Source: Desulfuromonas sp. (GTDB lineage: Bacteria; Desulfobacterota; Desulfuromonadia; Desulfuromonadales; BM501). From it: a stretch of 64,000 bases of DNA. A program made the position numbers and the translations under genes. This document shows, piece by piece, positions 36,650 through 63,261 of the stretch (position 1 is its first letter; the number at the start of each line of letters is the position of its first letter). The stretch covers positions 102,710 through 166,709 of the forward strand of contig NZ_PKUB01000041.1 in assembly GCF_002868845.1 (NCBI RefSeq), written 5' to 3'. Below the pieces are notes generated by a model. It saw only the letters and a list, made by a program, of their open reading frames with translations. It was not told the DNA's origin and did no database searches.

Positions 36650-37379
36650 ATGCTGGCCAAGGTACTATCCGGGGCCCTGATCGGGATCGACGCCTACCCC
36701 GTCGAGGTGGAGGTGGACATCGCCATGGGCCTGCCCCAGTTCGCCACCGTCGGCCTGCCCGAGGGGGCGGTCAAGGAGAGCAAGGACCGGGTCAAGTCTG
36801 CGATCAAGAACTCGGGCTACGAGTTCCCGTCGCGGCGCATCACCATCAACCTCGCCCCGGCCGACGTGCGCAAGGACGGGGCCGCCTTCGACCTGCCGAT
36901 GGCGATCGGCCTGCTTCGAGCGACGGGGGTCGTCAAGGGGCAGTCCGAGCGCCCCTACCTCTTCATGGGAGAGCTCTCCCTCGACGGGCGGGTCAAGCCG
37001 GTGCGCGGCGCCCTGCCGGTGGCGGTGGCGGCGCGGGGGTGGAACCTCGCCGGCCTCGTCCTCCCCGAAGAAAACGCCCGGGAAGGGGGCATCGTCGAGG
37101 GGCTCCCCGTCTACGGGGTGCGTGACCTGGGGGAGGTCGTCGACTTCCTCAACGGCGAGCGGGAACTCGCCCCCTGCCGGGTCGACAGCGGCGAGATCTT
37201 CGCCCGGGCCGCCGCCGCGCCCGAGGACTTCGCCGAGGTCCGGGGCCAGGAGCACGTCAAGCGGGCCCTCGAGGTCGCCGCGGCCGGCGGCCACAACGTG
37301 ATGATGGTCGGCCCGCCGGGCAGCGGCAAGACAATGCTGTCGCGGCCCACAACGGGGTCCTCTTTCTCGACGAGTTGCC
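36650..37379 (+). pseudogene. comM: comM/yifB (Mg-chelatase-like AAA+ competence protein), 5-prime fragment with an internal deletion, truncated by island insertion
   Basis: The N-terminus [38 protein letters not shown] is typical of ComM/YifB. Walker [11 protein letters not shown] ends near 37340 and directly abuts [13 protein letters not shown] (Walker B, 37342-37379), which is in a different frame. Homology ends at about 37379 and the rest of the gene (about 200 codons) is absent. Confidence 0.85.
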
Positions 37380-37491
37380 AGCTGTTTTTTAATCCCCCAA
37401 AACTTCCTAATAATACCCCCAGAAGGCCCCAGAGGGCGTAACCGACTGTTTTCGCAGGCGTATCGGCGTAAAACCGCCTTGCGTCAGGGGC

Positions 37492-37687
37492 GTTAAATGC
37501 GGGAAAGGGGCATTAAATGTCAAAAGTGACAGCAGATTTTGCGTACCTAGAGCACCAAAAAACACAGTCATTTCAGCCGATTGAACCACCCTAAAAACAA
37601 GAAATGCATTTAACGGTTGACACCAGCGCGAAGTGTCATATAATTCCGGCCACATTCATTAAATGCACTTCTGTCCCACTAAATGCG
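37492..37687. repeat. Cluster of TTAAATGC-type short repeats (candidate integrase/Xis arm sites or int operator)
   Basis: TTAAATGC at 37493, TTAAATGT at 37513, palindrome AAATGCATTT at 37602-37611, TTAAATGC at 37659, CTAAATGC at 37679. Two direct pairs are each spaced exactly 20 bp. Confidence 0.5.
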
Positions 37688-37759
37688 TTTTTGATTCACT
37701 TAGAGTTGCCGATTACTCGACTTTCCAGATCGGCGGCCCTCGACCGGAAAGGAGACCCC

Positions 37760-38869
37760 ATGACCCATCCCCACCACCTGAAACTGGCTCCCCACACCGA
37801 AGGCAACTTCACACTGCCCGCCGAAGATACGGCGCTGCTAAATGAGATCATTGAAGGCTATAAAGCCCGGCGGATCGGTGCCCGGCGATACAATAAGAAG
37901 AGTGTCGAAGGAGAGTTGGCGGTGGTCCGGGACTTCATCAACCACTCACAGATGTCGCCGTGGCACTGGGGTGATTCGGATTTCGAGGCCTGGTGCAATG
38001 AGATCGGGGTGAACCGCAAACTGGCCGTCTCCACCCAGCGCAAATACCAGAGCGCGGTGAAGATCTTTCTCGACTACCTTGTCAACAACCAGGGTCTGCG
38101 CAACAAAGTCAAGGAACTGTGTGGCGTGGCTCCGCGCCAGATCTGCCATAGGGACAACATGATCCAGCACAAGCTCGACCGCGAGCTGGCCCGCAAAAAA
38201 CCGGCCCTCACCGAAGAGCAAGTCAAACATCTCCTCGACGGTATCGCTGAAGGTATCGACCTGGCCTGGCGGTTCACCAGCAAAGCTCTCATTCCGCTTC
38301 AGCGCGACAAAGCGCTGTTCAGCTTGGTCTACGGGCTGGGCTTGCGAGCGTCGGAAGCCTGCAACCTCGACCTTGAGGATTTCTATCCCAATTCCGACCT
38401 GCCGCAACTTGGCCGGTTCGGATTCACCCGGGTCACCGGTAAGGGAAGCCGTGGAACCGGACCCAAGTTCCGCACCGTCCAGATCATGTACGAATGGGTG
38501 GCGGAAACTCTGTGCTGGTATATAGAAGAAATCCGTCCCCGACTGCTCAAGCACGCCGCCCCCAACGAAAAGGCGCTGTTCCTCAGCGAACGGGGTACGC
38601 GTCTGACCCGTTCCAGCCTGGACAACCGTTTTCAGGAGGCCGTGACGCTCTCGGGGCTGGATGGCCTCGGCTTCACCCCGCACTGCCTGCGCCACTCACA
38701 GATCAGCCATGCTCAAGATACGGGACTAAGCCTAGAAGCGACCCGGCGGATGGCTGGGCACGCATTTGCCAGCACAACCCAAGGCTACACCCACGTCGGT
38801 GACCGTGCGGTCCAAAACGAGATCGCCCATCGTGTCAACAACCCCCAGCGACAGCAGCATCACTACTAG
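37760..38869 (+). CDS. Tyrosine site-specific recombinase (island integrase)
   Basis: The ATG at 37760 follows GGAAAGGAGA. Catalytic set is visible: GLRASE (Arg), GKGSR (Lys), HCLRHS (His-x-x-Arg), AGHAF (His), QGYTHV (Tyr). Confidence 0.9.
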   Translation: MTHPHHLKLAPHTEGNFTLPAEDTALLNEIIEGYKARRIGARRYNKKSVEGELAVVRDFINHSQMSPWHWGDSDFEAWCNEIGVNRKLAVSTQRKYQSAVKIFLDYLVNNQGLRNKVKELCGVAPRQICHRDNMIQHKLDRELARKKPALTEEQVKHLLDGIAEGIDLAWRFTSKALIPLQRDKALFSLVYGLGLRASEACNLDLEDFYPNSDLPQLGRFGFTRVTGKGSRGTGPKFRTVQIMYEWVAETLCWYIEEIRPRLLKHAAPNEKALFLSERGTRLTRSSLDNRFQEAVTLSGLDGLGFTPHCLRHSQISHAQDTGLSLEATRRMAGHAFASTTQGYTHVGDRAVQNEIAHRVNNPQRQQHHY

Positions 38870-38878
38870 GAGGACCTA

Positions 38879-39223
38879 ATGGCAGAAACCGCTCCACGCA
38901 AATACCTCGACTGGCGACTGCACATCCTGATGGCGGAACGCCGGATCAAACGGATCACCGACCTGCACCGAATGCTGCAGGAGGTCGGCGTCGAAATCTC
39001 GACCACCCAGCTCTCGCGGATCGTCAGCCAGCGGCCGAAGAGGATCAACACCGAGGTGCTGGACGGGCTGGTCACGGTTCTGAACTGCAACATTGAGGAC
39101 CTGCTAGTGGCCGGCGACCCCGAAGAGGAAAGCGAAAAACCGGCACCGAAAAAGACGCCTCGCAAGGGCGCCACCTCGCGGGTGACCGGCCCCGCGCCCT
39201 TTTCCGGCCCCGAAAACCGTTAG
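38879..39223 (+). CDS. XRE/Cro-type helix-turn-helix protein with a basic Pro-rich tail
   Basis: 114 aa. LHILMAERRIKRITDLHRMLQEVGVEISTTQLSRIVSQRP..VLDGLVTVLNCNIEDLL resembles HTH_XRE. GGAGG lies 6 nt upstream of the ATG, which is 9 bp after the int stop. Confidence 0.7.
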   Translation: MAETAPRKYLDWRLHILMAERRIKRITDLHRMLQEVGVEISTTQLSRIVSQRPKRINTEVLDGLVTVLNCNIEDLLVAGDPEEESEKPAPKKTPRKGATSRVTGPAPFSGPENR

Positions 39224-39280: not shown

Positions 39281-41068
39281 ATGGCCAAGGCACACGCCGT
39301 TTTCGAGGGAAAGGCTTATTGCGGAACCTGCTACAAGCGGGAATTCAAGCCGGTTCCCTGCGCCGAGTGCGGTCGCACCGTGCGCACGCTTCAGGGGCGC
39401 GGTCCAGCCACCTGCAAGTGCTGTCGCAGCAAGAACCGCTCATGCCTGCGCTGTGGCAAGCCGGTGCCGCGAGCGGCGCTGACCCTAGATAACGGGGTCG
39501 CCTGCCCTTCATGTGCCCGCTATTACAAACCGGCGAAAGCGTGCGCCAACTGTGGACAGCGAAGTCAGCATCTGGCCAGAGACTTCAAGCTGGGGTTTGA
39601 GGAACCGGTCTGCCCAAAATGCCGTCGCAAAGGGCACGCCACCTGCGCCTGTTGCGGCAAGCACCGTGCTCCGGCCGGCAAAGACGATGAAGGGCGGCCC
39701 CTCTGCCAGGGCTGCCTGAAGAGGAAAGAGCCTTTCACCTGCCCGCGCTGCGGCCGGCAAGGGCGCTACCACAGCCAGGAACGCTGCAGCGACTGCTACT
39801 GGGGAGACCGCCTCGGCAAAAAGATCTCCGATAATCTGTGGATCATGAACCAGAGGTGGCTGCGCGACGCGTTCCAGGAGTTCGGCAGACGGATGCGGAT
39901 TGACGGCAAGGCGCAAAAGATCGCGGTGGACCTGGACCGGCATGTGAAATTCTTCCACCTGCTGGACCAAAACTTTTCCTGTCCGGAGGAGGTCAGGCCC
40001 AGGGAACTGATCCGCGTCTTCGGCCTCGACGGGCTACGCCGCGCCAGCCTGCCCTTCGGCTTTCTGGTCAGCGAAAATTATCTTCCGGAGATGCTGGTCG
40101 AGGAGTTGCGGCGCGAAGCGGAGTTCCAACGCCAGGAGTCGATACTGGAGGACGCCGAAGACGCGTGGTTCCATCCGGTGCTGAAGCGCTTCCATCTCTC
40201 CCAAAGCAACCGGCGCAAGCGATTCGAGTCGCGAGGCTGGGAAAAAGAGTTCCAGCGCTACGCGCCGCGTTCGGTCACCCAGGATCTGAAGGCCGCGGTC
40301 AAGTTCCTCAAGTTCTTGCCGCCTGAAATCGGGTCGATCCAGGAGATCTCCGAAAAGCACTTGGACGCGTTTCTGCTCAACCACCCCGGCTACCGAAACG
40401 GGCTGAGGAATTTTATCTGGCACCTCAACCAGCACGAAAAAACGTTCGTACGTTTCAAAATCCCGACTACAAAACAGGGTAGGAAAATCGCCCTGGTCCT
40501 GGGTCAGGACAAATTCCACGACCTGCTGGAATCCTGGTCGCACGCTCCGGACCGGGAGGTGAACACCGCGCTGATCGCCCTTTTCATGATGCTCTACGCG
40601 CAGAAGGCCCGCCGCGTCCTGCGGATGCGGTTGTCAGACTTGCACCATAACCCCGACGGGAGCTTTTCCACGACCTTCGGTGACGTCGAGATCCCCTTGA
40701 GCGAGATCCTGACCCCTCTGATCGAACGCCACCTGGAACAACGGGAAAAGCAACGGGCACGCGAAGGCCACGACCTCGAACCCTACCTGTTCCCAGGCCG
40801 GCGTGTCGGAAGCCACCTGAGCGAATCGAGCGTCACACAGTATCTGCACCGCTACCAGGTCAGCGCCGCGATGTTGTTCGCCACATGGATGTTCAACGCC
40901 CTCTCCAACGGCTTGCGACAAGCCAAAACCCTGAAGCGGGCATTCGGCGTAAGCGACATGACCGCTGCGGGATATTACGAGGTTTTCGGGGCTCGGCTGT
41001 TCGACGAGGTGTCGGGGAAAATGCGCGGCAATGACGGCCCACTGTTTTTTCTTGAGGTGGGGAGCTAG
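39281..41068 (+). CDS. Multi-zinc-ribbon protein with a C-terminal degenerate tyrosine-recombinase-like domain
   Basis: 595 aa with eleven CxxC pairs in the first ~165 aa. The C-terminal ~200 aa aligns by eye to an integrase catalytic fold, but HxxR reads AAML, the LGH His reads FGV and the beta-hairpin Lys is absent. The terminal YY is retained. Confidence 0.6.
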   Translation: MAKAHAVFEGKAYCGTCYKREFKPVPCAECGRTVRTLQGRGPATCKCCRSKNRSCLRCGKPVPRAALTLDNGVACPSCARYYKPAKACANCGQRSQHLARDFKLGFEEPVCPKCRRKGHATCACCGKHRAPAGKDDEGRPLCQGCLKRKEPFTCPRCGRQGRYHSQERCSDCYWGDRLGKKISDNLWIMNQRWLRDAFQEFGRRMRIDGKAQKIAVDLDRHVKFFHLLDQNFSCPEEVRPRELIRVFGLDGLRRASLPFGFLVSENYLPEMLVEELRREAEFQRQESILEDAEDAWFHPVLKRFHLSQSNRRKRFESRGWEKEFQRYAPRSVTQDLKAAVKFLKFLPPEIGSIQEISEKHLDAFLLNHPGYRNGLRNFIWHLNQHEKTFVRFKIPTTKQGRKIALVLGQDKFHDLLESWSHAPDREVNTALIALFMMLYAQKARRVLRMRLSDLHHNPDGSFSTTFGDVEIPLSEILTPLIERHLEQREKQRAREGHDLEPYLFPGRRVGSHLSESSVTQYLHRYQVSAAMLFATWMFNALSNGLRQAKTLKRAFGVSDMTAAGYYEVFGARLFDEVSGKMRGNDGPLFFLEVGS

Positions 41069-41886
41069 AGGGGTTTCAGGATCTGGCGAAGTGTCCGCGC
41101 CGCCTCGGGGGAAGTGACATTTACCACGTGAGCAACTTCCCGCAAGCGGCCAAGATAGTGGCCCTTCCCCGGCGGGGGCGCCTCGGTCAGAACGACGCAG
41201 CGTTCTTTTTCGGCGAACCCGTTATCGGCGGTCAGGCGGAAGGTATAGAGAGCGTCGTTGACCTGGCGCAGCAGCGACTGACGGCTGGTGCGTAGGCGCA
41301 CAACCTTAAAGAGCGTGCGGGGGCTGCCGTCCACCAAAAAGGAAAGGCGCACTGTTTCTTCGGGACGGCCTCTTATGGCCGAAAACTCGACCTCCACGTT
41401 CTCCTCGAACTTTTCGAGATCTCGCAAGCCAACCTCATCGACCAGGCGCTCCAGGCGTTTTTGAAAGGGATTTTTTGGCTTAACGCGCGGCGGGTCGACC
41501 ATCGCCTCGAACAGATCCTGTATCAACGCATCCGAGCTTTCACCCTTGATCGGTGCCACCGGTCCCACATAGCGGGCGACAAACGGCGCGTTGGTCTCCT
41601 CCAGATGCCTACGCCGGTCGTTGAAATAGTCGCCGTCGCTCTCGACGACGCGGCCGTACGCGCGACACAATTCGTCAAACCAAGCGACCCACTCACGGTA
41701 GGCCCATGCATCCTCGCCGGCATCCCGAGCTAACTTTCGAAACGGTTCCAGGTCGATCCGCACCGGGTCTTCTGCCCCCAGCATTCTGCAATCCGCCCCT
41801 GCGGGCTTGCGCACCAGAACGCCGACGTTTTTCGTCTCGTAGCGGATCGGGTCCGCGATGTATTGCACGGTCCAGAGTTCAATCAT
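41065..41886 (-). CDS. DUF3037-like protein (function unknown)
   Basis: 273 aa. The N-terminus WTVQYIADPIRYETKNVGVLV matches my recollection of the DUF3037 signature (Y..v.Y.Pd..rgE..NvGv). The start overlaps the upstream kinase stop by 4 bp. Confidence 0.6.
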   Translation of the reverse strand: MIELWTVQYIADPIRYETKNVGVLVRKPAGADCRMLGAEDPVRIDLEPFRKLARDAGEDAWAYREWVAWFDELCRAYGRVVESDGDYFNDRRRHLEETNAPFVARYVGPVAPIKGESSDALIQDLFEAMVDPPRVKPKNPFQKRLERLVDEVGLRDLEKFEENVEVEFSAIRGRPEETVRLSFLVDGSPRTLFKVVRLRTSRQSLLRQVNDALYTFRLTADNGFAEKERCVVLTEAPPPGKGHYLGRLREVAHVVNVTSPEAARTLRQILKPL

Positions 41887-42608
41887 AGCTGCGGATCAAT
41901 CTGGTCCGTATGACTGGAGACGATGTCGGCAAGGGTGTTCTTGCGCCACACCAACGCGTCCGCCAGGGCCTCTTGGGTGGTCGAGGAGACGTTCTGGAAT
42001 TTCCGGCCGAAGACGCAGCATTCACGAATCAGCCGGTCATCGACCGCCGAGATCCGCTCCACCCAGAGATCGAGAAACACCCGCATTACCAATCCGAAGA
42101 ACGGATGGAAGAGAACGATGAGCTGGCGAGCTTTGAGGGCAGCGATACTTTTTTCTGGAGTGTCCTCGATGTTAAGCAGGACGTGAGAATGGTCGAACCC
42201 CCGAAAGAGGCTGGTCCCGGGAGTGTTCAGGGCGGCCTTGAGGTTGCTGGCACGATCTCGGTTCCCGATCAGAAGATCGAAAACGAGGAGCGCGGCGACC
42301 TGATCGGGATACTTCTCGGCGGTTTTCTTGAACTGGCTTTTGAGCAGATCGGGAAGAGGTATACGCGGAGCCGCGACTTCCAGACTGGCGAACGCCAGCT
42401 CCCATTCGGCCTCAGTGAGGACGCCGTCGGCGACCGGCACGTGAAAAGTCTGGGCGAGGCGCACCGCGACCTTTTCAATATACACGCAGTCAGGGGATTC
42501 GAGACCATCCCGCTTGAGAATGGCATTAAGCCGACAATTTGCAGGCGCCGTAATCCCTTGGCGGCGAGTTTTTAGAATCCGGTTCAAAACATAGGTTGGT
42601 TCTTTCAT
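41883..42608 (-). CDS. HipA-C-terminal-lobe-like small Ser/Thr kinase
   Basis: 241 aa. Catalytic-loop-like FDLLIGNRDRASNL and metal-binding-like RGFDHSHVL. Much shorter than canonical HipA. Confidence 0.65.
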   Translation of the reverse strand: MKEPTYVLNRILKTRRQGITAPANCRLNAILKRDGLESPDCVYIEKVAVRLAQTFHVPVADGVLTEAEWELAFASLEVAAPRIPLPDLLKSQFKKTAEKYPDQVAALLVFDLLIGNRDRASNLKAALNTPGTSLFRGFDHSHVLLNIEDTPEKSIAALKARQLIVLFHPFFGLVMRVFLDLWVERISAVDDRLIRECCVFGRKFQNVSSTTQEALADALVWRKNTLADIVSSHTDQIDPQL

Positions 42609-42704
42609 AACACTTCACCGCATGGCAATATGTGGCAACAAACATATGAGGCGCCCAAAATAGAAGGCAATTGGCAGCTTGTCAACTTTTCCGGGAGTAA
42701 CGCG

Positions 42705-43217
42705 ATGCGACTCTTCTCACTTAAGCAACTTCAGAAAACCTTCCTTGCCGCAGCCTTGTTGCTGTTTCTGGCCCTACCTTGTATTGGAGAGACCTTTACC
42801 GGAAAAGTTGTGAAGGTCACTGATGGTGACACGATCTCTGTCTTGCATCAGGGCCGGCCCGAGAAAGTCAGACTGGCGGAGATCGACTGCCCGGAACGCG
42901 GGCAAGCTTTTGGGAAAAAGTCCAAGGAGTTCGCGTCTTCGATTACAGCAGGGAAAATCGTCCGAGTCGAGGTGCGGACGGTATACCGATACGGGAGAAC
43001 CGTTGGGGAGGTCTTCTTGGCAAACGGGGAATCCCTTAACCGCTTGCTGGTAAAAGAAGGGTATGCCTGGTGGTACCGTAAATATTCAAGCGATATTTCA
43101 ATCGGAGAGCTGGAAGCGGAGGCTCGGGAAGGTAAACGAGGCTTATGGTTTGGAGAAAATCCAATGCCTCCTTGGGAGTGGCGCAGCCTTAAAAGACAGA
43201 GAAAAAAGTATCAGTAG
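42705..43217 (+). CDS. Secreted thermonuclease (SNase / micrococcal nuclease family)
   Basis: Signal peptide MRLFSLKQLQKTFLAAALLLFLALPCIG. SNase core VTDGDTISV..KVRLAEIDCPERGQAFG..YRYGRTVGEVF..LVKEGYAWWY. Confidence 0.85.
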   Translation: MRLFSLKQLQKTFLAAALLLFLALPCIGETFTGKVVKVTDGDTISVLHQGRPEKVRLAEIDCPERGQAFGKKSKEFASSITAGKIVRVEVRTVYRYGRTVGEVFLANGESLNRLLVKEGYAWWYRKYSSDISIGELEAEAREGKRGLWFGENPMPPWEWRSLKRQRKKYQ

Positions 43218-43578: not shown

Positions 43579-43941
43579 TCAGGTGTTGACGTCGATTAGC
43601 TCTTGGGCCTGAGAAATTATCCATTGCAGCGTCTCTTCATCATTCTGTTCGGAAAGTGATTCGATCCATTCAGAAAAAAGATCAGCGGGGTCCGGAGGGA
43701 CAGGTAATGACAACCAACGCTGCTGACTCCAGTTGTAATATACAGAACCCGGGAAGAAGCGGTATGGTTTTGCTAGCCCTTTCAACAGATGTTTCAATAA
43801 ATCATCGTCAACACCTGCATTAATAAGAGGGCCAAGAAAATCTAGTTCTGCGCACTCCCATTCCTCCAGGGATTCTTTTTTATCGGGGTTGAAACTGAGA
43901 AAGCCTTCTTTGTATAGCTGTTCAACCGTCCAGAGCGACAA
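43579..43941 (-). CDS. Acidic hypothetical protein (TTG start; possibly the 3-prime part of a longer interrupted ORF)
   Basis: 120-aa ORF with no ATG and no clear SD. It is in frame with a 31-codon ORF (44043..43951) across a single TAA. Confidence 0.35.
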   Translation of the reverse strand: MSLWTVEQLYKEGFLSFNPDKKESLEEWECAELDFLGPLINAGVDDDLLKHLLKGLAKPYRFFPGSVYYNWSQQRWLSLPVPPDPADLFSEWIESLSEQNDEETLQWIISQAQELIDVNT

Positions 43942-44048: not shown

Positions 44049-44234
44049 TCATTTCTTTGTGCCAGGGTTGAATAATGGACGTATTTTTTTGGAAGGAAGA
44101 TCATAGACATCAGATCCACAGCTATGTGGCTCAAAGACGTCAATTTCATAGGGTTTCCAGCCATATCTGGTCTTAACAAGTCTTATATCAAGTCCGCAGT
44201 TACGACATTCCTGCTCCGGCCAATTACCACCCAT
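44049..44234 (-). CDS. Small Cys/His protein (putative zinc ribbon), downstream of brxL
   Basis: 61 aa. CRNC...HSC. GGGAGGGG SD lies 3 nt upstream of the ATG. Same strand as BREX, 64 bp after the brxL stop. Confidence 0.5.
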   Translation of the reverse strand: MGGNWPEQECRNCGLDIRLVKTRYGWKPYEIDVFEPHSCGSDVYDLPSKKIRPLFNPGTKK

Positions 44235-44298: not shown

Positions 44299-46350
44299 TT
44301 ATGGCCTCAAATAGGTCACCTCAAACGCCTTGCAAGTCCGGAATTCCTGCATCCTGTTACCAAAAGAAAACGTGTCATTCATCTGATACTGTTGGAAAAT
44401 ATCCAGCCCACGGTCTAGAGATATTTTCCATCCGTTGTCAGTCACAATGTGACGCGCGTGGATACTGTTGCTGAGGTCGTACTCCCAAGTGAATTGTATT
44501 CCGATCGCTGCGCACGAATTCTGGATCTGAGTCAGCATTTCGTGCTGCTGCTCTGCTTTAAATTCATCCGAGATCGTCACAAGGTGGACACTAGGCTCCG
44601 CGTCTTCGGCTTTACAGCGAGCAACCGTCTCCATTAACTCCATAAGGTTTCTGACCTGATAGAAGAGACGAATATAGGCATCCGTGATTTCTATCCGGGT
44701 TGCACCCCTCAGATAAGGAGTAAAAAGCATGTCATAGGAGACCCCACGTTGATTTTCCTTAAACTGTAGATGCTGAGCTTTCGGTTCATCAGTTTCTGAT
44801 TTTTGATCCGTCGCATGCTCCGTTGCTGATTCGGAGCCAGCATCGGCTTCAGTTTGTTTTTCTTCATCAGTCCCGTAATGTCTAGGGTACTCTTCTTCTT
44901 CCAGGGTCTTCACAAATATCGTGTCCCCCCCGGCGCGTTCGTAGCCGAAGCGAACCTTTGTATAGGTTTTATCAATCCGTAAAAGCTGATCCTTGACCCT
45001 CTTACGGCCCTCAATCGCAAAGGTCAGAATCTCCTCTATTTCTTCAGGGCTTGCTTCGCCACTCGGGAAAAGAACCTTCATCAGCCCCGAAAAGGTTTTA
45101 TGTACTCCATCCCTGTCACGTGTGGAGATATCGCTCAGCAGATCAAATTTACCTTTATACTGCTGTGAATAGTCGTGGTTACGGAGTGATCGTAAAATTT
45201 CTGCAAGATAGTCGACCACGAATCCATAGCCGTCCGAGAACATCTCTCCACGGATAATGTCAACTTCCCAGCCAGGAATGTAGAAATGCAGACGGTCCAA
45301 AAATGCAGAGTCGTGGTATTTGTCGGGGAGATCACAGAACAGATCTGAGTGTTTAAGCATATACGGAACAGTGTGGGAGGTATTGCCGACAAAGACCATT
45401 GAGGCTTCGGCTCCCAAGGTTTCAACTCCGCGCGAGAATGTCTTGTTGGCCATGTAATTTTTCATGATATCGACCAACGCCATGTCTACCCGCTTCTGCT
45501 TACCGGCAAACTCATCAAACGCAACGGTATCCCAATAACCAACCAAACCAATTTTACCGTTGGAGTTATTGACAAACAGTTTGGGTACTGTGACTTCACC
45601 GCCGGAGATAAGGATTCCGTGTGGAGAAAATTCTGAAAAAATATGGGACTTTCCAGTCCCCTTTGGCCCAAGCTCTATCAGGTTAAAATTTCGCTCGCAG
45701 AAAGGAATCAGACGGACAAGTTGCAACATTTTGCTGCGGCGCCCCATCAAATCAGGATTGAAACCAATACTCTGTATCAGTAGATCAATCCACTCGTCAG
45801 TTGAAAATTTCTGTCGAGCTTCCAAGTAGCTGTCGAAATCGAAATGCGAAAGCTTAATCGGTTTGATCGACGCCATGATCCACGGGCAGGCATCCTTCTC
45901 TTCCACCAGATCGTATTCGAGATCGCAAATACACCAGACACCTCCGACAAGTAATTTCGGATGTTTCTTGATGGTGTCGGTCGTAACCAGGACCTTTTTA
46001 ATTCCGAGATTCGAGAAGGTTGCCTCATAAACCCCTTTTGAATCGTTGAGATCGACGGTCACCTTATCGATGACCTTGTGACGCCCCTTCTCCTTAATCG
46101 TAGAACGAACTAACCCTGCTTCATTACGATGGACGTAATGCTTGCGCAGGATCTCCCGAACGGTTTGAATCCCGGTCTGAATACTCGCTTCGTCGCTAGT
46201 GGCGCAATACTGGCCTAGAAGGTATTCGAGGACATAGGATGGGACAATGGCATTCCCCTTGACAGTCTTGACCAGATCCTTACGGACCACCAAACCGGGG
46301 AAATGTTCATTTATTTTTTTGTCGAGTTCAGACAATGTTTCCTCCCTCAT
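44299..46350 (-). CDS. brxL: BREX Lon-like protease BrxL
   Basis: 683 aa. The N-terminus LDKKINEHFPGLVVRKDLVKTVKGNAIVPSYVLEYLLGQYC and the AAA motif GPKGTGKSH are typical of BrxL. Terminal gene of the BREX operon. Confidence 0.9.
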   Translation of the reverse strand: MREETLSELDKKINEHFPGLVVRKDLVKTVKGNAIVPSYVLEYLLGQYCATSDEASIQTGIQTVREILRKHYVHRNEAGLVRSTIKEKGRHKVIDKVTVDLNDSKGVYEATFSNLGIKKVLVTTDTIKKHPKLLVGGVWCICDLEYDLVEEKDACPWIMASIKPIKLSHFDFDSYLEARQKFSTDEWIDLLIQSIGFNPDLMGRRSKMLQLVRLIPFCERNFNLIELGPKGTGKSHIFSEFSPHGILISGGEVTVPKLFVNNSNGKIGLVGYWDTVAFDEFAGKQKRVDMALVDIMKNYMANKTFSRGVETLGAEASMVFVGNTSHTVPYMLKHSDLFCDLPDKYHDSAFLDRLHFYIPGWEVDIIRGEMFSDGYGFVVDYLAEILRSLRNHDYSQQYKGKFDLLSDISTRDRDGVHKTFSGLMKVLFPSGEASPEEIEEILTFAIEGRKRVKDQLLRIDKTYTKVRFGYERAGGDTIFVKTLEEEEYPRHYGTDEEKQTEADAGSESATEHATDQKSETDEPKAQHLQFKENQRGVSYDMLFTPYLRGATRIEITDAYIRLFYQVRNLMELMETVARCKAEDAEPSVHLVTISDEFKAEQQHEMLTQIQNSCAAIGIQFTWEYDLSNSIHARHIVTDNGWKISLDRGLDIFQQYQMNDTFSFGNRMQEFRTCKAFEVTYLRP

Positions 46351-46365
46351 GCAACACCTACGACA

Positions 46366-46668
46366 TTATTTAACCGGTGCAAAAGCGACGTAACCGCCGA
46401 AGAAGCTAGGAGCAGGCTGGTAGATAGCAAACTTGACAGAATCGGGAAACTCAATTGCATCGGTAAACTCATCCATGGTTTGCTCGTCCAGATCAACGTC
46501 AGCATCAAAATCAAGCCTGGGGCTGACATAAACAAACCCGCCCTCATCTGCGGCCAAAAACAACGTATGCTCACATGCCTCTGTTCCGTCTGGCTTTAGT
46601 GCAACCTTACCGCAAAAAGGGCAGTGAACCTTAAGCTCGGCGGTGTCTGTAATCTCAACTTTTTGCAT
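46366..46668 (-). CDS. Small highly acidic CxxC protein inserted between pglZ and brxL (unknown function)
   Basis: 100 aa. HCPFCGK...CEH. About 19 Asp/Glu against 7 Lys/Arg. 21 bp after the pglZ stop and 15 bp before the brxL start, on the same strand. Confidence 0.55.
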   Translation of the reverse strand: MQKVEITDTAELKVHCPFCGKVALKPDGTEACEHTLFLAADEGGFVYVSPRLDFDADVDLDEQTMDEFTDAIEFPDSVKFAIYQPAPSFFGGYVAFAPVK

Positions 46669-46689
46669 GACTTCTATTCCTTGAGATGG

Positions 46690-49188
46690 TTAAAAATCGA
46701 AGTCGCCAGCAAACGATCTTCTCATCAAATATTTGCTCGATTTGTACTCACTGAAATGTGAGGTTCCGGAAACGGATTCTTCCAGCCGCAGATAGACTTC
46801 CTGGCCATTCAGGTCATCAGCGCTGCGAGACAGCACAAATCTAACCCTCAGCTCCCGCTCGCGTGGATTGTCAGATACCAGGTCAAAGGTCAACTCATGC
46901 TGATCTGATATAAGTTCGCCTGCCTTTGAATAAATTCCGGCCCGAAGCAATCGGGCCTGCACCTTGTAACCGACCGCCTGGTCCTGATAGAAGGCTACGG
47001 ACAGTTGCCCGGTAGTAATCACTTCCGAAGATCCACGCAAAATATCGACCCCGACCAAGCTGATATCGCTGGTGCGTTTTTTATTGATCTGCACCACAGG
47101 AATCACCACCTCCTGCAATGAGGCCCCTCCGTGAACAAAGCGACTACCTGAGCCCTTGAGCCGCAGGCGGTTGATTGACTTGGGAATCTGAATTTCGATC
47201 TTCCCTTTGATCTGCAGGGTTTCAGATTTAAAAGTGGTCAATCCGGGCTGGTCCTGAAGTCCCTGCCCCAACACGAAGCGGCGGTCCCGGTAAAGAACTT
47301 TTTGCCCCTGAGCAGCTACGGTGGAAAAATCACTCTCATCAATCTCACGGTTCTGGTAGATGAAGCCATGATCGGCCGTCACCAAGAGGTTGCTGGCATT
47401 GGCCGCCGTTAGCTTCTTGATGATACGCATCAGCTCCTGCAAAGCCTCTTGGGCTGCTTCGAAAGTCCTCTCTTCGGATTCACGCGTATGCCCGGTCCCG
47501 TCGATAAGGTCATGATAGATATAGACGATATTCGTCGAGCGCAGAATGTCGCGGAACTCATCCCGCTGCATTTTCAGAAATTCATCCGCTTTCAATGCCC
47601 TGGCACCATCGGGATTGTTCTGCTGAAGAATCTTGTTTCGATTCACCAGACCCTGGGTGCTCATGCCATCAGCAAAAACCGTCCCACTTTCATCCTCTGC
47701 AACGGATAATTCCTTATGCGGCAGCAGCGCGGCCATTCCCAGTTGGGTGTAACTTGGCAGCATCGACAGTGCTGGCTCGATATTGGCTTCATAGCGATCT
47801 TCCTGCCGCACCAGCCCCAGTAGTTCCTCCCCTATTTCATAACGCATAGCGTCAGAAATAATAACGCAGACCTTACGATCCTTTTTCAGAAACGGGTCAA
47901 CCCATTTGCTGTAGAAGCTGTTTTGCAAGGGAATCGGCGAGGCATCACAGACCTTCAGATTATCGATACACTCCTGCCAAGCGTTGTTCAACTTGAGCAG
48001 ATAGGAATTTGAATAATGGTTTTCAATCAGGTCCACCAACGGACCGAGCAGGGTCGACTGACCAGACCTGCGCACGTGAAAAGTAAATTTACGGTAGAGC
48101 TGATCAATCCGATACCAGGTCCTGGCATAGCGCTGCACCCCTTCAGCCGGGGAATTAATCGTCAGGTCCATCTCGTTCAGTGAATTCAGAAACTGAGCGC
48201 CGGTCTCAAGAGCACCATAGATGTCCTGAAAACCGGTATACCAGTGACTCTGTCTCCTTTGACGTACGACCAGAGCACAGTCTCCAGCAGAAATAGCTTG
48301 TGCCGAAACTTCCTTGACCAGGTCACTGAGGATTTTCTTGTCAATCAGTTCGAAATAATCGAGTTCAACCAGTCGCTTGTAGTCCCGCTTTTGCAGATCC
48401 TTTTCAATATTCAGAATCCCGGCACAATCTGCAGATAGTGTCTCGAAATTCCCCTGGTGGCGGACATTGTCTTTCCAGCGCCTCAGGAAAACCAGTGCCT
48501 CGGTAGACAGCCGGGCCTCGCCGTCGGTCTGCATGGCGTAGCACGATTTGAACAGCTCAATGACAAAATCTCGGACGGTGGCCTTTTCAGGGGAATAACC
48601 ATAAAAGCGCTTGAGCTTCTCCCACAAAAACGGGCCCAGACCGCAGCGCTCAATCAGACGAATCTTTTCCTCTTTGCAGTCAGCCAACTCGGCCAAAAGG
48701 GTTTCGAGGATTTCATCCACGCGCGGCTCGGCAGCGGCACAAACTGCAAGCATCTTCAGGCGAAGCAAACCGGCGGTATCATCCTTTTTAAGCTTCTTGC
48801 CGAGGGATTCGCGACGCTTGGCCGCTTGAAAAAATTCGGCATGCTCCTGAGCCAACCCGCTGAACTCAGGGCCAAGCTCAAGCTCAGAGAGCCAGAGTCC
48901 GATTTGATCAGTACGAAATTCGCCATGAGCCAACTGCACATCCAACAGCCAGTTATGCAGATCCTCAGGTTGTGGCCCTTCCTTGTAGATGAGGAACTTC
49001 TGCTCCGGCTGCTCGCGAAGAATGCGGTATTTGACTGCGAACTCGTTATTGTAGAGAAAGACTTTTTCAATCCCCGGCAGTTCCAGTGCATCGAAGTCGG
49101 CACGCAGTTCCTTCTTTGTGTCGTACCAGAAGATGATACGATGACGATCAAAGTGCCGTTTCAATGCCGGAAGTATCTGTTCACTCAT
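46690..49188 (-). CDS. pglZ: BREX alkaline-phosphatase-superfamily protein PglZ
   Basis: 832 aa. The N-terminus RIIFWYD..ELRADFDAL and the PglZ core VCVIISDAMRYE..TADHGF are typical of type I BREX PglZ. Confidence 0.92.
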   Translation of the reverse strand: MSEQILPALKRHFDRHRIIFWYDTKKELRADFDALELPGIEKVFLYNNEFAVKYRILREQPEQKFLIYKEGPQPEDLHNWLLDVQLAHGEFRTDQIGLWLSELELGPEFSGLAQEHAEFFQAAKRRESLGKKLKKDDTAGLLRLKMLAVCAAAEPRVDEILETLLAELADCKEEKIRLIERCGLGPFLWEKLKRFYGYSPEKATVRDFVIELFKSCYAMQTDGEARLSTEALVFLRRWKDNVRHQGNFETLSADCAGILNIEKDLQKRDYKRLVELDYFELIDKKILSDLVKEVSAQAISAGDCALVVRQRRQSHWYTGFQDIYGALETGAQFLNSLNEMDLTINSPAEGVQRYARTWYRIDQLYRKFTFHVRRSGQSTLLGPLVDLIENHYSNSYLLKLNNAWQECIDNLKVCDASPIPLQNSFYSKWVDPFLKKDRKVCVIISDAMRYEIGEELLGLVRQEDRYEANIEPALSMLPSYTQLGMAALLPHKELSVAEDESGTVFADGMSTQGLVNRNKILQQNNPDGARALKADEFLKMQRDEFRDILRSTNIVYIYHDLIDGTGHTRESEERTFEAAQEALQELMRIIKKLTAANASNLLVTADHGFIYQNREIDESDFSTVAAQGQKVLYRDRRFVLGQGLQDQPGLTTFKSETLQIKGKIEIQIPKSINRLRLKGSGSRFVHGGASLQEVVIPVVQINKKRTSDISLVGVDILRGSSEVITTGQLSVAFYQDQAVGYKVQARLLRAGIYSKAGELISDQHELTFDLVSDNPRERELRVRFVLSRSADDLNGQEVYLRLEESVSGTSHFSEYKSSKYLMRRSFAGDFDF

Positions 49189-49214
49189 ATATCATCCCAG
49201 TTCGGTATCAATCA

Positions 49215-49799
49215 CTATGCAGTCAATCTCTCGATCAATCGGTAGACGGTCGTTCCGGAGTCGCGCGGCCAGTCCTGACAAGGAGGGGTGTCACGGCGAC
49301 GGGCGCGATCCACGGCATTGGCAATGCCGGAAGCAAATTGTTTTGCATCAAAAGCCCCCTTCTGATAACCGGGGATTTGTCTCAGGAGGCGTTCCACACA
49401 TTCCCGTGATGTTCGGACACCATTACCATCTTCAAAATGGAGCAGAAGCCAGAATTCAAACTGAGGGTTGCTTACGGCAAGCCCATAGTTTTCCTTCGTC
49501 TGTCCCCACTGATACAACTGCTGAAGCTGTAATTCAGTCCATTGGTCCGTATCGACCACCAGCCAAGCCTCATCTTCAGGGCGCAGCCCTTCTTTCCTGA
49601 GGTAAGCATCCATGCGTTTCAAGACCTGAGGCGGAGAGCTTTTATGTCCACCTTTCAGCAACTGTACATGGATTACCTTGTCACCATCTTCAAAGATTTT
49701 GAAATAGCGGGGCTCTGTCTCCGCCCCCTCGGTCGCCAGAACAAACATCCTCTTATAACGCCGCTCACCTAAAGGGCGCGAGAATCTACGCCTCGCCAA
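49215..49799 (-). CDS. RloB-like (Toprim-related) protein, partner of the upstream ATPase
   Basis: [21 protein letters not shown] and [15 protein letters not shown] match RloB-family motifs. A TTG at 49799 lies 7 nt after AAGGAGG and overlaps the ATPase stop. Alternative starts are 49847 and 49748. Confidence 0.8.
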
Positions 49800-51141
49800 C
49801 AGCCGCCTCCTTTTCAGGTAAGTCCAAGTCTCCGTTGGCCAGCGCACCAGAGATCAAAAGACGTGGAACACCGCCAAGCCTTCCCTGCAGATAACTCTTG
49901 CGAATGTCCTTGTCGCTACGCACATCTTTATATTCACTGAAGGAAAGGAGTGATGAGCCGCCATCTGCATCGCGTTCAGCAATCCACATTTCATCTCTGC
50001 GGAGAATATCCTGATCCATTAATAGTACGTCGTGGGTGGTCAGCAGAAGTTGTGAACGGCTATCGGCGGAGCAGGCAGACAGATAGCCCTGAAGCAATTG
50101 CCGGGTCAAAAGAGTATGAAGGCTGCGATCGACCTCATCAATGACATAAACCTGTGTTGACTTTCGAGAAGACATCTCAAGAAAGGCCGGCAGTAAATCA
50201 ATAACCCGCTTGGAACCATCAGACTCTTGTCCCATTTCAAATTTGACCAGTTCTCCACCACGGTTTTCGTGATAGGTCACCAACTTCCGGGCGACGATTT
50301 CGCCTTTCTTGCGAGTAAAAACATACCGCTCATGAAAAGGCGACATCACCCGTAATGTCATCCCATCTTTCAGTGAAGCTTGTAACTTGGTGCGAATTTC
50401 TTCGGGCAATGCGAGGTTGTCAAAGCTGACGTCTTCGCCACCCAACTGAGCGATGCCAGTGTCTAGCAAACCAAGACACTTGTTCATCGTTTCATACAGC
50501 GGACTGTCTTCCTGGAGAAACTGTTCAAAGGGTTCGAATCGCGTATCCGGCGCAATCAGCACAAGATCGTTCTTGAACCAGTCATAAACCGGCTTGAAAT
50601 TCTCAACCTTCTGCTGAACGGCATTGGTCAGAAAGAGTTGGTTCTCACGCGTTCCTTTGAAGGCAAAATGGAGGAATTGATCTTCATTCAGCGTAGGGTT
50701 AAATCTGATTTCATCCAACTCGCGAACAAACAGTTCTTTTTCTGTTGTGGGTCGCACCTCGACCAAGCGTTCTTCAAACACTCGTTCCTGGCTAACCGCA
50801 AACCCGTACTCATAAATGGTTTCGTCAACCAGCAGTTCAAATTTAAAATAGGTTGCTTTCTTTGCATCGCCGGCATCAAGTCGAAAAGACTCCACCGGAA
50901 TCAGTTCGTCTGGTCGCGTACCATCAACTATTAGGTTTTTTGCGAAATTGAGTGCGGCAAAAAAGTTGGTTTTTCCCGAGGCGTTACCACCGTAGATAGC
51001 GGCGACAGGTAACAGCCGCAGTTTGTAGCGTTCGATTCGCGCAAGTCGGTCACCATGCTGCTTTTCGCGGCTGGCCACCATGCTGAACTCAGCCTGTTGA
51101 CGGAACGAACGCCAATTATTTAAAGTGAAATTGATGAGCAT
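49786..51141 (-). CDS. AAA/ABC-type ATPase (AAA_21/RloA/AbiLi-like)
   Basis: 451 aa. [14 protein letters not shown]..., Walker [10 protein letters not shown], Walker [13 protein letters not shown], and LLLTTHD. Confidence 0.85.
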
Positions 51142-51213
51142 GCCTTGTCTCCTTGAGAGAAATTTTCCCCTAATGGAGATAGAGTAGCATATTTGTAGAT
51201 TTTATTACATTTT

Positions 51214-54200
51214 TTAAGTGATTTTATCTCTCAAGTATCGGCTCAGCCCAGTCACCTTCTTCAGCGCGTCATCGAATTTCGGGTAATTCACTTTAACGCC
51301 GTCATCGAGGTCAATTTCGATTTGTCTGGTTGCCAGGGGATAAAGAACTTCCCGCTCGTAGTCTTCGAGTTCGTCGATGATCTTTTTGAGTTTTTCGATA
51401 TCTTTGAGAGCCAGGGTTTTTTCACCCTGAGTGGCGGAGACGCTGATGCTGACCCCCTGAAGGTGCTCAAGTCGCGATTCAAGCTTGGTGCGGAACTCGC
51501 GCAGGTAGTCGTTAAGCACAACGCTGACCGTATCCGGGCGGTAGCGGTGCATGTAGATCAGCGCATTGAAGCTCCCCTTGGTGCTACTGAACAGCCAATA
51601 GATGGGACGCTTCTTGTAGCGCTTAATGTGATCATTGTAGAAATCCTTGAGAAAATACTTGCGGACATCTTTGCCCAGCGCTTTTTCAACAAACTTGAGG
51701 TTGTCTTCATAATGCTCCACGCCAAAGGTGATACGCAGGAACGTGCGAAAACGGTCAGAGATGTCGTCAGTAAACCAGTCGCCATCAAGCATGGGGATGA
51801 CGTTGTCGTCATCCGCCGGGAAGCTCGCTTCGGGTACCCGCTTCAGATAGTCCTCGATGGTCTCGCCCTGGTTGGCCAAGATCAGACCCGGCTTTTCCAG
51901 TGTGTATCGGCCGAACATGCAGCCCACGGCGTAGGAGATCAGCTCGCGCATGGTGTCGGCCAGCAACAGCGCCTCCAGCTCTTTTTCATTTTTGCCGTTG
52001 CCATAACGGTAGTGCGGGTTGCAGGTCAGGGTGATTTCGTTGAGTGGTACCTCGGGCGTCAACTCAGCCTGCAGGCCGTAGGCTTCGATGAAGATGCGGT
52101 TATTATCTTCCTCCAGTCGCTCCATTTCCAGCGTCATCTCCTTCCATTGGGCTCGGAGCTTCAGGTAAGTGGCCTTCAGGGTAGTTTGCCGATAGTCGCA
52201 CTGCAATAGCGGTAGGCTCGTGAAGTCACATGAGTTTTCGTATGCATTCCAATCAATTTGATGAACCTTAATGGCTTCACCACTTGCATGCTTCGTCGCT
52301 TTGCTATCAGGCTGCAAAATCGGCATCTTCGCCATAACACCAACTTCGAAATTCAGTGTCGGCGACAAAAACTGAAGAAAAGAAAGCGCAACCTTTGAAT
52401 TTGAAAAACATAAAACCGTATCCTGTAGCCCTGACTCGTCATAAAAGCACGGCCCGGCATCCCCTGGAATGATTCCATCGGGAAACCATCTAAAACTGCA
52501 TCTGCCGCTACTGACTTTGGGCCAAGTAACAGCTTCTTTGAAATATAGATGTTCACTAGGGATGATTGCTTTTCCTGTTGCTTTTATCTCGTCACCATCA
52601 TTTCCCCAATTTACAACATCTCCAATGTTTCCATACCACTTCCGAAATGTACCGCCTGAGTTAAAGAAGAACCATTTAAAACCACTGCTGCCCGCCTCTA
52701 TTTTTTCAAGGTTTCGACCAATACGCTCCAATGAAACTTCATGCCAGCAGCGAATGAATCTCCCAGCATCTCCGGTTTGAAGTCCACGTCTCGTCTTTCC
52801 AATTCCATCAAAAGACTGAGCAGAGGAAAAAATGGAGGCAATTTTCTTGCTAACCCAATATGCTATCGGGCTCCCAGGAATTTTCTTGAAATCAGCGGCA
52901 GAGGCGAGGTAGAGCAGCCCACAATCCGGATTTTTGATAGCGTTTCGAATAGATTCTTCTTTTTCTGCTTCGGAGTCACCATCAACCAGCCTTAAATAAC
53001 GTCCCTTGTATTCAAGCCTGTTCGCATTTTCCAGAACAAAAGCGGTAGTCGATACCACCTCACCACCGATGCTATCAAACGCTCTTGCCCCTAGGTGTGC
53101 CATTGACAACAGTGTGTCCTGACTAAGAAGTCGTGCTCTAAGGCCCTCGAAGGACGACAAGAACATCCAACTTTGCATCGTAATCATAGCAACAGAACCT
53201 TGTTTTTTAGCTAGGTCGAGATTGCGCTCAATGAACATAGCAAACAGGTCTGATTTACTGTTCGGATAGTTATTCTTGGCCCAGGCACTTAAACGGCCAT
53301 TCATCCCTTTACCACCCATATACGGCGGGTTGGCAACCACCACATGATATTGGGGGCAGAGGTATTCGGTCTGCCGCAGAGCTTGCAGCATCTTCTGGTG
53401 TGTCATGCTTATAAACAGATGCCCGGAGACGTCCTTCGACTCCAGAATCTTCAGCATCCCCTCCACGGCAGTGATATCCGGACGGATCAAAGATCCGAAG
53501 TTATCGGCTTCTTCAAACTGTCGTAAAGTGGTCTGCAGTGGCGATGTGAACAGGTCGCGCCCGATGAAATCCATGTACTCCTTGAGTTCACCTTCGGCAA
53601 ACTCGATCTTCCGTAACACACAGATATTGGGCTGCACAGGCTTGCGAAAAAAGCGCCGCTGCTTTGCGCGGGCCTTCATGGTCAAAGCAAAGGCGGCCAG
53701 TTCTCCGGCGCGTTCGTCAATTTCGATGCCATAGAGGTTGTGTGTCAGAATCTTTGTCGGGATCTCGGCGGACTCATAGCCCTCCTCCTCGTAGATGGCA
53801 TACAGCAGGTCAAAGGCATAGGTGAGCATGTGTCCCGAACCGCATGCCGGGTCGCAGACTTTGATCTCTTCCGGCTTACCGATGCGCAGGAAATCGGCCT
53901 CGGCCTGCTCAGGTTTGATGTAGTAATCCATCCGCTCAATCAGCTTTGAACTTGGGCGATTGAGCAGCCACAGGCGGCCGAGGGAGTTTTCCACTAGATA
54001 GCGCACGATCCAGTGCGGCGTGAAGAGCTGGGTGGCGGCCGGAATATTCTCGGGTGTGATCTTCTTGTTTTTATTCAGCCCATCGAACACCTCGTCCTTC
54101 TTCTCAGAGATGTAGAACTGGTAGAGCCAGCCGATGACCTCGACATCCTGGCAGGCGTCGATGGTTAGGGTTTCACGCACAGAGGTGAGAATCGACGCTT

Positions 54201-54723: not shown

Positions 54724-54765
54724 AGCAATTCAATACTCCGTAGAACAAACTGGCTCGGATGCCAA

Positions 54766-58293: not shown

Positions 58294-58309
58294 TGAACGA
58301 TTCCCTCCG

Positions 58310-58921
58310 TCAAACTTCGCAATGGAAGATATTAAATGCCCGGTAATATTTGTCGTCACGCAGGCGGCCGAACAGGTCGAGCGAGGCCCCTTGTTCTAGG
58401 GAGTGAGTATATTCCCCCGGAAAAAACATGACTGTGGGTTTGTGCTTGGCGGTACTTTGCAGATTGTTCAGCACATTGTGTGACCGGATATAGGGAAAGA
58501 CCTCGCCAACTCCCCCCAGAAACATAACGTCGAAAGTCTCGGCTTGCATTTTACGGGCAATGGCCGGGATCAAAGAATCCCTCGCATCAAGAATCCCCTG
58601 CAGGTCCTCTTTCAGATCCTGCTTGGACATATCCCCTTCATTCTCAAGGTACCAGCCCCAGTCACCATTCTCTTTGAGGATCTCCACCGCCAGATCATAG
58701 AGATTAATGTTGAGCACCTGGATGCCCTGCTGGGACAACTTATTGACGAGCTGGCGCTGTATTCTCTCCATCTCAACCGCGTCACCTGGCTTGAAGGGAC
58801 AGATAAAAAACGGAACTTCATTCCCCAGCCCCTGCATCCTCAGAAAACGCTCGCTGCTGATCAGATCAAACAGGTGCTGGAACTGTTCGCCAAGCGGACG
58901 GAGGTCATAGCCTGTGGTCAT
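58310..58921 (-). CDS. brxB: BREX protein BrxB (DUF1788 family)
   Basis: About 203 aa. The position between brxA and brxC and the size fit BrxB. The ATG at 58921 overlaps the brxA stop (ATGA). Alternative GTG at 58930. Confidence 0.8.
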   Translation of the reverse strand: MTTGYDLRPLGEQFQHLFDLISSERFLRMQGLGNEVPFFICPFKPGDAVEMERIQRQLVNKLSQQGIQVLNINLYDLAVEILKENGDWGWYLENEGDMSKQDLKEDLQGILDARDSLIPAIARKMQAETFDVMFLGGVGEVFPYIRSHNVLNNLQSTAKHKPTVMFFPGEYTHSLEQGASLDLFGRLRDDKYYRAFNIFHCEV

Positions 58922-63108: not shown

Positions 63109-63241
63109 GTGCACAAAACCCTACTTTGTGCACTGTGTCTTCGGCGACTCGTCTGATAGTGAAATCAACCGAGAATCGGTGCATAAACTAGTGCTAAAAT
63201 CTAAGAGCATAAAATGCGTATCATTTTGCTTTTGTGCATAA
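63109..63241. promoter_or_regulatory. Repeat-rich region upstream of the serine recombinase (candidate res/crossover site)
   Basis: GTGCACAAA-N7-TTTGTGCAC (63109-63133). GTGCATAA recurs at 63179 and 63234, and AGCATAAA at 63206. CGTCTGATAG (63150) resembles a Tn3/gamma-delta res half-site, recalled from memory. Confidence 0.35.
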
Positions 63242-63261
63242 TTGAAGAAGGAGCTACTTAC

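Follow-up and report, generated by a model that had tools for sequence, protein, structure and literature searches.

Which kind of system is encoded by two small, overlapping genes that are located between an integrase module and a BREX operon in Desulfuromonas sp.? The stretch of DNA analysed here, called the window in the following, comprises 64,000 nucleotides of contig NZ_PKUB01000041.1 (RefSeq assembly GCF_002868845.1, positions 102,710 to 166,709 of the forward strand). On its minus strand, a first gene codes for a kinase of 241 amino acids (aa) and a second gene for a partner protein of 273 aa. An earlier note on this DNA had described the two as a HipA-like mini-kinase coupled to a DUF3037-like protein, and had regarded the pair as an undescribed kinase-based toxin-antitoxin or phage-defence module without any known experimental characterisation. 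The type of the module is supported by homology to DS-6/HipAD, but the pair is not undescribed. Based on the comparison of sequence profiles, it is very probably a divergent member of the two-gene system of a HipA-family kinase and a DUF3037 protein, which is known as PDC-M66 and as DS-6/HipAD.

Both open reading frames (ORFs) are genuine genes and did not arise by chance, because the pair recurs across many loci and because the proposed catalytic residues are invariant or nearly invariant in 15 kinases. The coordinates and lengths of the two genes and their 4-bp overlap (Table 1) are as they had been given in the earlier note, and so are the kinase motifs FDLLIGNRDRASNL and RGFDHSHVL, which are both found in the 241-aa product. 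The minus-strand sequence of the junction is ...CAGCTATGATTGAA..., and the N-terminus of the partner carries WTVQYIADPIRYETKNVGVLV. The ATGA overlap fits a translational coupling of the two genes. Whether the two families are also neighbours in other genomes had been raised as a question. The kinase gene is located directly upstream of the partner gene in every related locus whose upstream sequence is sufficient for scoring, with proteins that are 25-58% identical, and most of these loci also have the 4-bp overlap. The closest database proteins carry the name Desulfuromonas sp. A sigma-70-like promoter candidate is located some 50 bp before the kinase start; with one site found and 0.5 expected, it is only suggestive.

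Curated models do not recognise the pair at their thresholds. The best Pfam match of the kinase is HipA_2 (PF20613) with an E-value of 6.7e-4 and 19.4 bits, which is below the cut-off of 27 bits. Weak Pfam matches were also obtained among 11 kinase homologues, eight of which match HipA_2 and seven HipA_C. In PADLOC, the kinase matches PDC-M03A (2.4e-5) better than PDC-M66A (0.015), both matches being weak, and for PDC-M03 no description was found. The window partner does not match any Pfam, PADLOC, or NCBIfam model, and DUF3037 (PF11236) is missing from its Pfam hmmscan results even at E<=10. One of five close relatives of the partner reaches DUF3037, with an E-value of 0.0078. A word-indexed search retrieved 11 relatives of the kinase and 15 of the partner, all of them without a Pfam domain on record. 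When the partner alignment served as the query of an exhaustive profile search, 669 representative clusters were obtained at E<=1e-3, 190 of which have E<=1e-10, and most of the best 150 matches are about 260-300 aa long. Among the best 149 members of the partner family, two match DUF3037 (E<=1e-3) and 26 match PDC-M66B (best E-value 1.9e-8). It was these PDC-M66B matches that first connected the partner family to a known system.

Single-sequence scans of the partner and scans of each family member against Pfam, NCBIfam, and PADLOC were insufficient to decide on membership. Searching all 174 collected proteins with DS-6A and DS-6B using phmmer did not give any matches, and hhalign comparisons of the family profiles to the single DS-6A or DS-6B sequences were too weak (E-values of 0.024, 0.0011, and 0.005, probabilities of 2-20%). 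Therefore, reference profiles were built from ten annotated pairs of a "HipA family kinase" and a "DUF3037" protein, DS-6/HipAD included. DS-6B, used as a tblastn query against plasmids, had revealed 21 records of a "DUF3037 domain-containing protein" adjoining a "HipA family kinase". Nine diverse plasmid loci were fetched for the reference profiles, and the six of them with annotated genes share the kinase-partner layout, with a 4-bp overlap in five of the six.

Compared to these profiles, the homology becomes evident for both proteins. The window kinase-family alignment (A6) matches the ten DS-6A-type kinases with a probability of 97.1% in local mode (E-value 7.8e-11, 114 columns) and of 97.9% in global mode (E-value 2.5e-12, 201 columns). 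The window partner family was represented by two alignments, A4 and A3. A4 matches the ten DS-6B-type partners with 96.8% probability (E-value 3e-10) over 217 collinear columns that include both domains and span residues 2-239 of the window protein and 5-232 of DS-6B, and A3 matches them with 85.6% (E-value 5.5e-6). All controls, namely cross-family, reversed, and five column-shuffled comparisons, stayed at or below 0.7% probability with E-values of at least 0.08. Judged from these alignments, both window proteins are full-length homologues of the DS-6 proteins. The kinase had thus rightly been called HipA-like in the earlier note and the partner DUF3037-like, which the Pfam hmmscan alone could not confirm. 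A check against Pfam profiles, as had been proposed there, formally fails for both proteins, while homology is found at the profile-profile level. The failure is explained by the limited sensitivity of the Pfam models and not by absent homology, and as no curated model recognises it at threshold the pair has been left unannotated.

The statement that no experimental characterisation exists for such a pair does not hold, as two homologous pairs have been tested. DUF3037 has been reported to show a strong association with HipA-like kinases, the PADLOC name of the pair being PDC-M66 (PLoS Biol 2025, PMC12548924). In the Retron-Sda1 operon analysed in the same study, deletion of the kinase abolishes defence and deletion of the DUF3037 gene is toxic, the retron parts being dispensable. 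The other pair is DS-6, which has been validated and renamed HipAD in the DefensePredictor study (Science 2026, PMC13092281) and which, according to reference 35 of that study, was first reported by Brenes & Laub in 2025. DS-6 consists of a HipA-related kinase (DS-6A, WP_000389051.1) and a DUF3037+DUF1829 protein (DS-6B, WP_000210934.1) from E. coli, for which AlphaFold3 predicts an interaction, and the catalytic mutant D139A of DS-6A loses defence (PMC13092281). The supplement to that study gives positions 2415-3164 for the kinase gene (249 aa) and 1591-2418 for the partner gene (275 aa), which overlap by 4 bp. DS-6A matches PDC-M66A with an E-value of 6e-15 and DS-6B matches PDC-M66B with 3.8e-16.

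The window pair resembles DS-6/HipAD in its organisation. In both, the kinase comes first (241 versus 249 aa) and is followed by a two-domain partner (273 versus 275 aa) with a DUF3037-type N-terminal domain, the stop and start codons overlap by 4 bp, and HipB is missing. In addition, the catalytic aspartate needed for DS-6 defence is kept, D118 of the window kinase corresponding to D139 of DS-6A. However, DS-6 is prophage-borne in E. coli, whereas the window pair is located in a comM island of Desulfuromonas beside an integrase block. It is also of the same two-gene kind as PDC-M66 and the Retron-Sda1-associated pair, but there is no retron near the window pair and, unlike PDC-M66 partners, the window partner does not match any PADLOC model. 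With classical HipBA the window pair shares the kinase superfamily, the LIG-x-x-D-...-N pattern of the catalytic loop (in an alignment made by eye), and a similar toxin-antitoxin logic. In contrast, E. coli HipA has 440 aa and contains N-terminal subdomains, and its HTH (helix-turn-helix) antitoxin is encoded upstream and also represses the operon. In the window the gene order is reversed and the operon does not contain an HTH gene, its upstream neighbour being a divergent SNase gene. That no HipB-type HTH gene adjoins the pair had been noted before and is correct; the nearest HTH gene codes for the HTH_26 protein in the integrase block, on the opposite strand. HipBST and the other Hip operon types (PMC8262856) also combine a truncated Hip kinase with a protein neutraliser other than HipB, and the gene order varies among them. 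However, the window operon has two genes and not the three genes hipB-hipS-hipT, and DUF3037 is not among the antitoxin domains given by Gerdes et al. 2021 (PMC8262856), which are HipS, HipS-HIRAN, gamma-delta-resolvase, and Stl-like domains.

As far as can be predicted from the conservation of its residues, the active site of the kinase is intact. The proposed catalytic set consists of K32, E45, D118 in the loop LIGNRDRASN, N122, and D139-H140 in the motif FDHSH. All 15 kinases have K32, E45, D118, and D139-H140, and at least 90% of them have N122. In the global alignment K32, E45, D118, and D139-H140 of the window kinase correspond to K42, E55, D139, and D164-H165 of DS-6A. The comparison to E. 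coli HipA itself is marginal, with an hhalign probability of at most 27% and only HipA residues 196-233 aligned. HipA structures are the top five matches of the kinase model in a Foldseek search against PDB, with probabilities of 0.60-0.82 (four of them 0.75-0.82), and at E<=1e-3 this search did not give any match for either the kinase or the partner model.

The AlphaFold2 model of the partner is confident (pLDDT, the predicted local distance difference test score, of 85.2) and consists of two domains that differ in their conservation. The DUF3037-like N-terminal domain contains the conserved polar residues D12, R15, E17, N20, G22, R34, and G37, as determined across 149 sequences, and W66 is present in 99% of them. 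The topology of the C-terminal domain fits the core of restriction endonucleases, and the weak Foldseek matches of this domain (E-values from 5e-3 to 0.5) comprise SduA, Card1, Cas4, EcoO109I, and phage PD-(D/E)xK endonucleases. Based on the topology and these matches one could suppose that the partner is the effector, cutting nucleic acids with an active PD-(D/E)xK domain, and that the kinase serves as sensor or regulator. This is extremely unlikely. Across the 149 sequences the C-terminal domain does not contain a conserved D...(D/E)xK triad but only conserved hydrophobic core positions, and the sole partly conserved acidic column (Asp in 60%) is represented by Asn163 in the window protein. 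An active nuclease was therefore rejected for lack of conserved catalytic residues. Furthermore, partners and a kinase fusion exist that lack the C-terminal domain altogether, and in the tested homologues it is the deletion of the partner that is toxic and the deletion of the kinase that abolishes defence.

These variants are also informative about the division of labour within the partner. Partners of 125-134 aa that comprise only the N-terminal domain occur within the family of the window protein, and a similar partner of 127 aa belongs to the bona fide DUF3037 proteins (Chondrinema). In addition, a fusion protein of 392 aa (P0143) joins a kinase to the N-terminal domain of the partner. Four contigs, which come from two or more sequencing runs, carry the fusion; it adjoins a block of GIY-YIG, p595, HTH, and integrase genes, and is not followed by a gene for the C-terminal domain. 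Because N-domain-only partners and a kinase-N-domain fusion exist, and because polar conservation is concentrated there, the N-terminal domain is supposed to be the part that binds and neutralises the kinase. The C-terminal domain would then be accessory, perhaps as a sensing or DNA-binding module. Another candidate role, the N-terminal domain as a HipS-like stand-in for the N-terminal subdomain missing from the kinase, did not find support at the sequence level: similarity to the N-terminal (HipS-like) region of HipA was not detectable, the partner profiles reaching at most 0.5% in a sequence comparison to E. coli HipA. In BFVD, two unnamed phage proteins match the full-length partner model with E-values of 2.4e-13 and 1e-6. 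A tblastn search of plasmids with the window partner and a scan of viral contigs did not reveal anything, and the latter thus provides no evidence for an origin from a phage or satellite.

For the function of the pair, a toxin kept in check by its neutraliser and serving in defence seems rather likely. The 241-aa kinase would act as a growth-arresting toxin. Translational coupling would supply the partner in a fixed ratio, and the partner would keep the kinase inactive by means of its DUF3037-like N-terminal domain, while the C-terminal domain, non-catalytic and nuclease-like in topology, might sense a signal or bind DNA. When a phage infects, or when the partner suffers some other insult, the kinase would be freed and would then phosphorylate an essential host protein so that the infection is aborted. 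Classical HipA and HipT target aminoacyl-tRNA synthetases. The roles of toxin and neutraliser are assigned because of the tested homologues, in which loss of the kinase means loss of defence and loss of the DUF3037 protein means toxicity (PMC12548924). The neighbouring genes were counted in favour of defence as well, since they are defence genes, BREX and AbiL in the window and restriction-modification (R-M), Dcm/Vsr, PLD, SNF2, PemK, and HicA genes elsewhere. Probably, the module stabilises the island too.

Several observations weigh against this interpretation. None of the curated models reaches its threshold, and the identity to DS-6 is very low, the hhalign alignments showing about 20-24% between the kinases and about 10% between the partners, so function, target, and trigger could all differ from those of DS-6. 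The structure model of the kinase is only moderate (pLDDT of 66.5) with a poorly defined N-lobe, its Foldseek matches to HipA are below significance (E-values of 0.13-0.6), and searching the sequences in PDB with profiles of the kinase did not return HipA. Within positions 42540-42760, upstream of the kinase, an operator-like inverted repeat could not be found, and autoregulation as known from HipB is therefore unsupported. Finally, the invariant placement of the pair beside the integrase block in its near clade fits maintenance of the element as well as it fits defence.

This placement is indeed strict. The near-clade loci are the window, L001, L002, L003/4, L006 (Mariprofundus), L009 (Sulfurirhabdus), L011/12 (chromosome of Geobacter anodireducens), L013, L014 (partial), L016/17, and L018, and in 11 of the 11 loci with enough flanking sequence, the window included, the pair converges on the block of p595, HTH_26, and integrase genes. 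The linkage spans partner identities from 85% down to about 25% and includes Desulfuromonas, Geobacter, Mariprofundus, Sulfurirhabdus, and metagenomes. The p595 homologues always have the HTH_26 gene on one side and the partner gene on the other (L001, L002, L003, L006, L009, L011, L013, L016, and L018). On the kinase side the cargo varies, from BREX and AbiL in the window to type IIG R-M systems, Dcm/Vsr, PLD nucleases, DUF6471, and SNF2 helicases elsewhere. Several islands have a small nuclease gene in divergent orientation to the kinase gene; outside the window it codes for a PLDc_2 protein of 175-180 aa and is usually accompanied by a DUF6471 gene. In L013, a distant member, an HTH gene precedes the kinase gene in the same direction and could represent a HipB-like third component in some variants.

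A pair that abuts the integrase-HTH_26-p595 block in all 11 near-clade loci, while the cargo on its other side is exchanged, could mainly be an addiction module, whose stable kinase kills or arrests cells losing or excising the comM element, phage defence being secondary or absent. According to Gerdes et al. (PMC8262856), toxin-antitoxin modules have an established role in stabilising mobile elements, which also speaks for this possibility. We nevertheless regard addiction as the main role as rather unlikely, given that the distant loci L020/L021 contain the pair without any integrase block, next to a type IIG R-M enzyme and other toxin-antitoxin genes, and that DS-6 and the Retron-Sda1-associated homologues protect against phage from plasmid clones as well, outside the setting of an island. 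The two roles are compatible with each other.

The strict synteny of the five genes, together with the stop codons of partner and p595 that overlap in the window (41065-41068), might also suggest a single unit controlling recombination, in which the kinase phosphorylates the integrase, the HTH protein, or p595 and an autonomous toxin system does not exist. In most of the related islands, however, a small GIY-YIG gene (91-117 aa) is located between the p595 homologue and the partner; the window and L001 do not have it. This variable insertion argues against a tight co-translation or co-regulation of p595 and partner. Homologous pairs act as autonomous two-gene systems, and the block is absent from the distant relatives and from the DS-6-type plasmid pairs except the one of Photobacterium, which is flanked by tyrosine recombinases. 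Control of recombination is thus very unlikely to be the function of the kinase. Because all near-clade loci have the block and L020/L021, where an MmeI-like type IIG enzyme and PemK/HicA genes adjoin the pair, do not, the pair is best described as an autonomous two-gene unit that has become fixed in the backbone of one lineage of comM-targeting islands.

The island setting that had been proposed for the window is confirmed by the flanking genes (Table 1). As read from the sequence, the island is inserted in comM with the junction at about position 37343, because the frame reads as comM through the Walker A motif and then diverges. It comprises at least 26.6 kb and its right end is beyond the window. 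A truncated ChlI/Mg_chelatase gene also adjoins the integrase in L002, L003, and L011. Near 42 kb there is a decrease in GC content, from about 0.65 to about 0.50. The brxL gene of the BREX operon, which contains AbiLi/AbiLii genes, ends 1691 bp from the kinase start. The p595 homologues have about 560-640 aa with roughly eight invariant CxxC pairs within the first 175 residues. They do not match any Pfam family at threshold, but the C-terminal region of p595 shows faint hints of Phage_int_SAM_4 and Phage_integrase (E-values of 0.14-0.17) and, by eye, an invariant YAQ at the position of G-L-R in integrase box I. The protein may be a degenerate, recombinase-like accessory factor. A serine recombinase gene is located close to the window's far end, and in the Geobacter island, too, the far end carries a resolvase gene (L011 678-1265).

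Table 1. Features of the kinase-partner pair, its island, and related loci. Coordinates refer to the window unless another locus is given.
Feature	Position	Strand	Remarks
Kinase gene (241 aa)	41883..42608	minus	ORF; putative toxin
Partner gene (273 aa, two domains)	41065..41886	minus	ORF; putative neutraliser/antitoxin
ATGA stop/start overlap, 4 bp	41883..41886	minus	partner ATG 41886-41884, kinase TGA 41885-41883
Partner N-terminal domain, residues 1-130, DUF3037-like	41497..41886	minus	beta-hairpin sheet and long helix
Partner C-terminal domain, residues 140-273	41068..41469	minus	alpha-beta-beta-beta-alpha-beta topology
Sigma-70-like promoter candidate TTGACA-17-TATTTT	42657..42685	minus	10/12 matches, ~50 bp upstream of kinase start
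Fusion P0143 (392 aa)	L016 8001-9179; L017 1848-3026		kinase (1-238) and partner N-terminal domain (257-384)
comM 5' part (Mg-chelatase-like), left island junction	36650..37342	plus	normal up to Walker A, then unrelated sequence
ORF holding the comM 5' part	36650-37441	plus	
Tyrosine integrase	37604-38869	plus	Pfam
HTH_26 protein	38879-39223	plus	Pfam
p595, multi-zinc-ribbon protein (595 aa)	39281-41068	plus	converges on partner gene, overlaps its stop codon (41065-41068)
SNase gene, signal-peptide-like N-terminus	42630-43217	plus	divergent from kinase; likely true start ~42705
Small ORF (120 aa)	43579-43941	minus	between SNase gene and brxL; no Pfam match
Small ORF (61 aa), CxxC...HSC zinc-ribbon-like	44049-44234	minus	between SNase gene and brxL; no Pfam match
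Complete type I BREX operon	44299-59523		brxA, brxB, brxC, pglX, pglZ, brxL
brxL	44299-46350	minus	C-terminal MIT_C/PLD-like domain (PF16565) behind ATPase domain
AbiLi/AbiLii (AAA_21 and RloB)	49215-51141	minus	inside BREX operon, between pglX and pglZ
Serine recombinase	63214-63831	plus	resolvase/invertase-like N-terminal motif; near far end of window
GIY-YIG gene	L002 9894-10169; L003 3254-3529; L011 10790-11065; L013 9705-9983; L016 9206-9523; L018 7754-8107		
PLDc_2 gene	L002 7413-7943; L003 473-1015; L011 8694-9221		
HTH_3/HTH_31 gene (86 aa)	L013 7776-8036		22 bp upstream of kinase, same direction

It is a rather unlikely idea that in this clade the module has ceased to be free-standing cargo and is a fixed backbone part of a family of integrative elements that target comM and have not been described before, in which it ties the state of the element (excision, loss, invasion) to growth arrest by the kinase. 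If true, the backbone of these elements would consist of the integrase, HTH_26, p595, sometimes GIY-YIG, the partner, and the kinase, while the cargo (BREX, type IIG R-M, SNF2) would be interchangeable. In that case, the fusion and the partners without a C-terminal domain would indicate that the kinase is neutralised by conformation and not through the degradation of a labile antitoxin.

In general, the combination of a HipA-like kinase and a DUF3037 protein is already known as a recently validated, toxin-antitoxin-like anti-phage system. New are the sister family of hundreds of representative clusters that Pfam and PADLOC largely miss, the invariant linkage of its near clade to an integrase-HTH-zinc-ribbon block, and the partner variants that are restricted to the N-terminal domain or fused to the kinase. 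Because most of the sister family is missed by the models, surveys of where the system occurs undercount it, and improved models could start from the alignments of this analysis. The variants make the DUF3037 N-terminal domain a candidate for the kinase-neutralising element, which can be tested directly. The strict linkage to the block suggests a family of defence-island carriers that target comM and have a conserved backbone for maintenance or defence.

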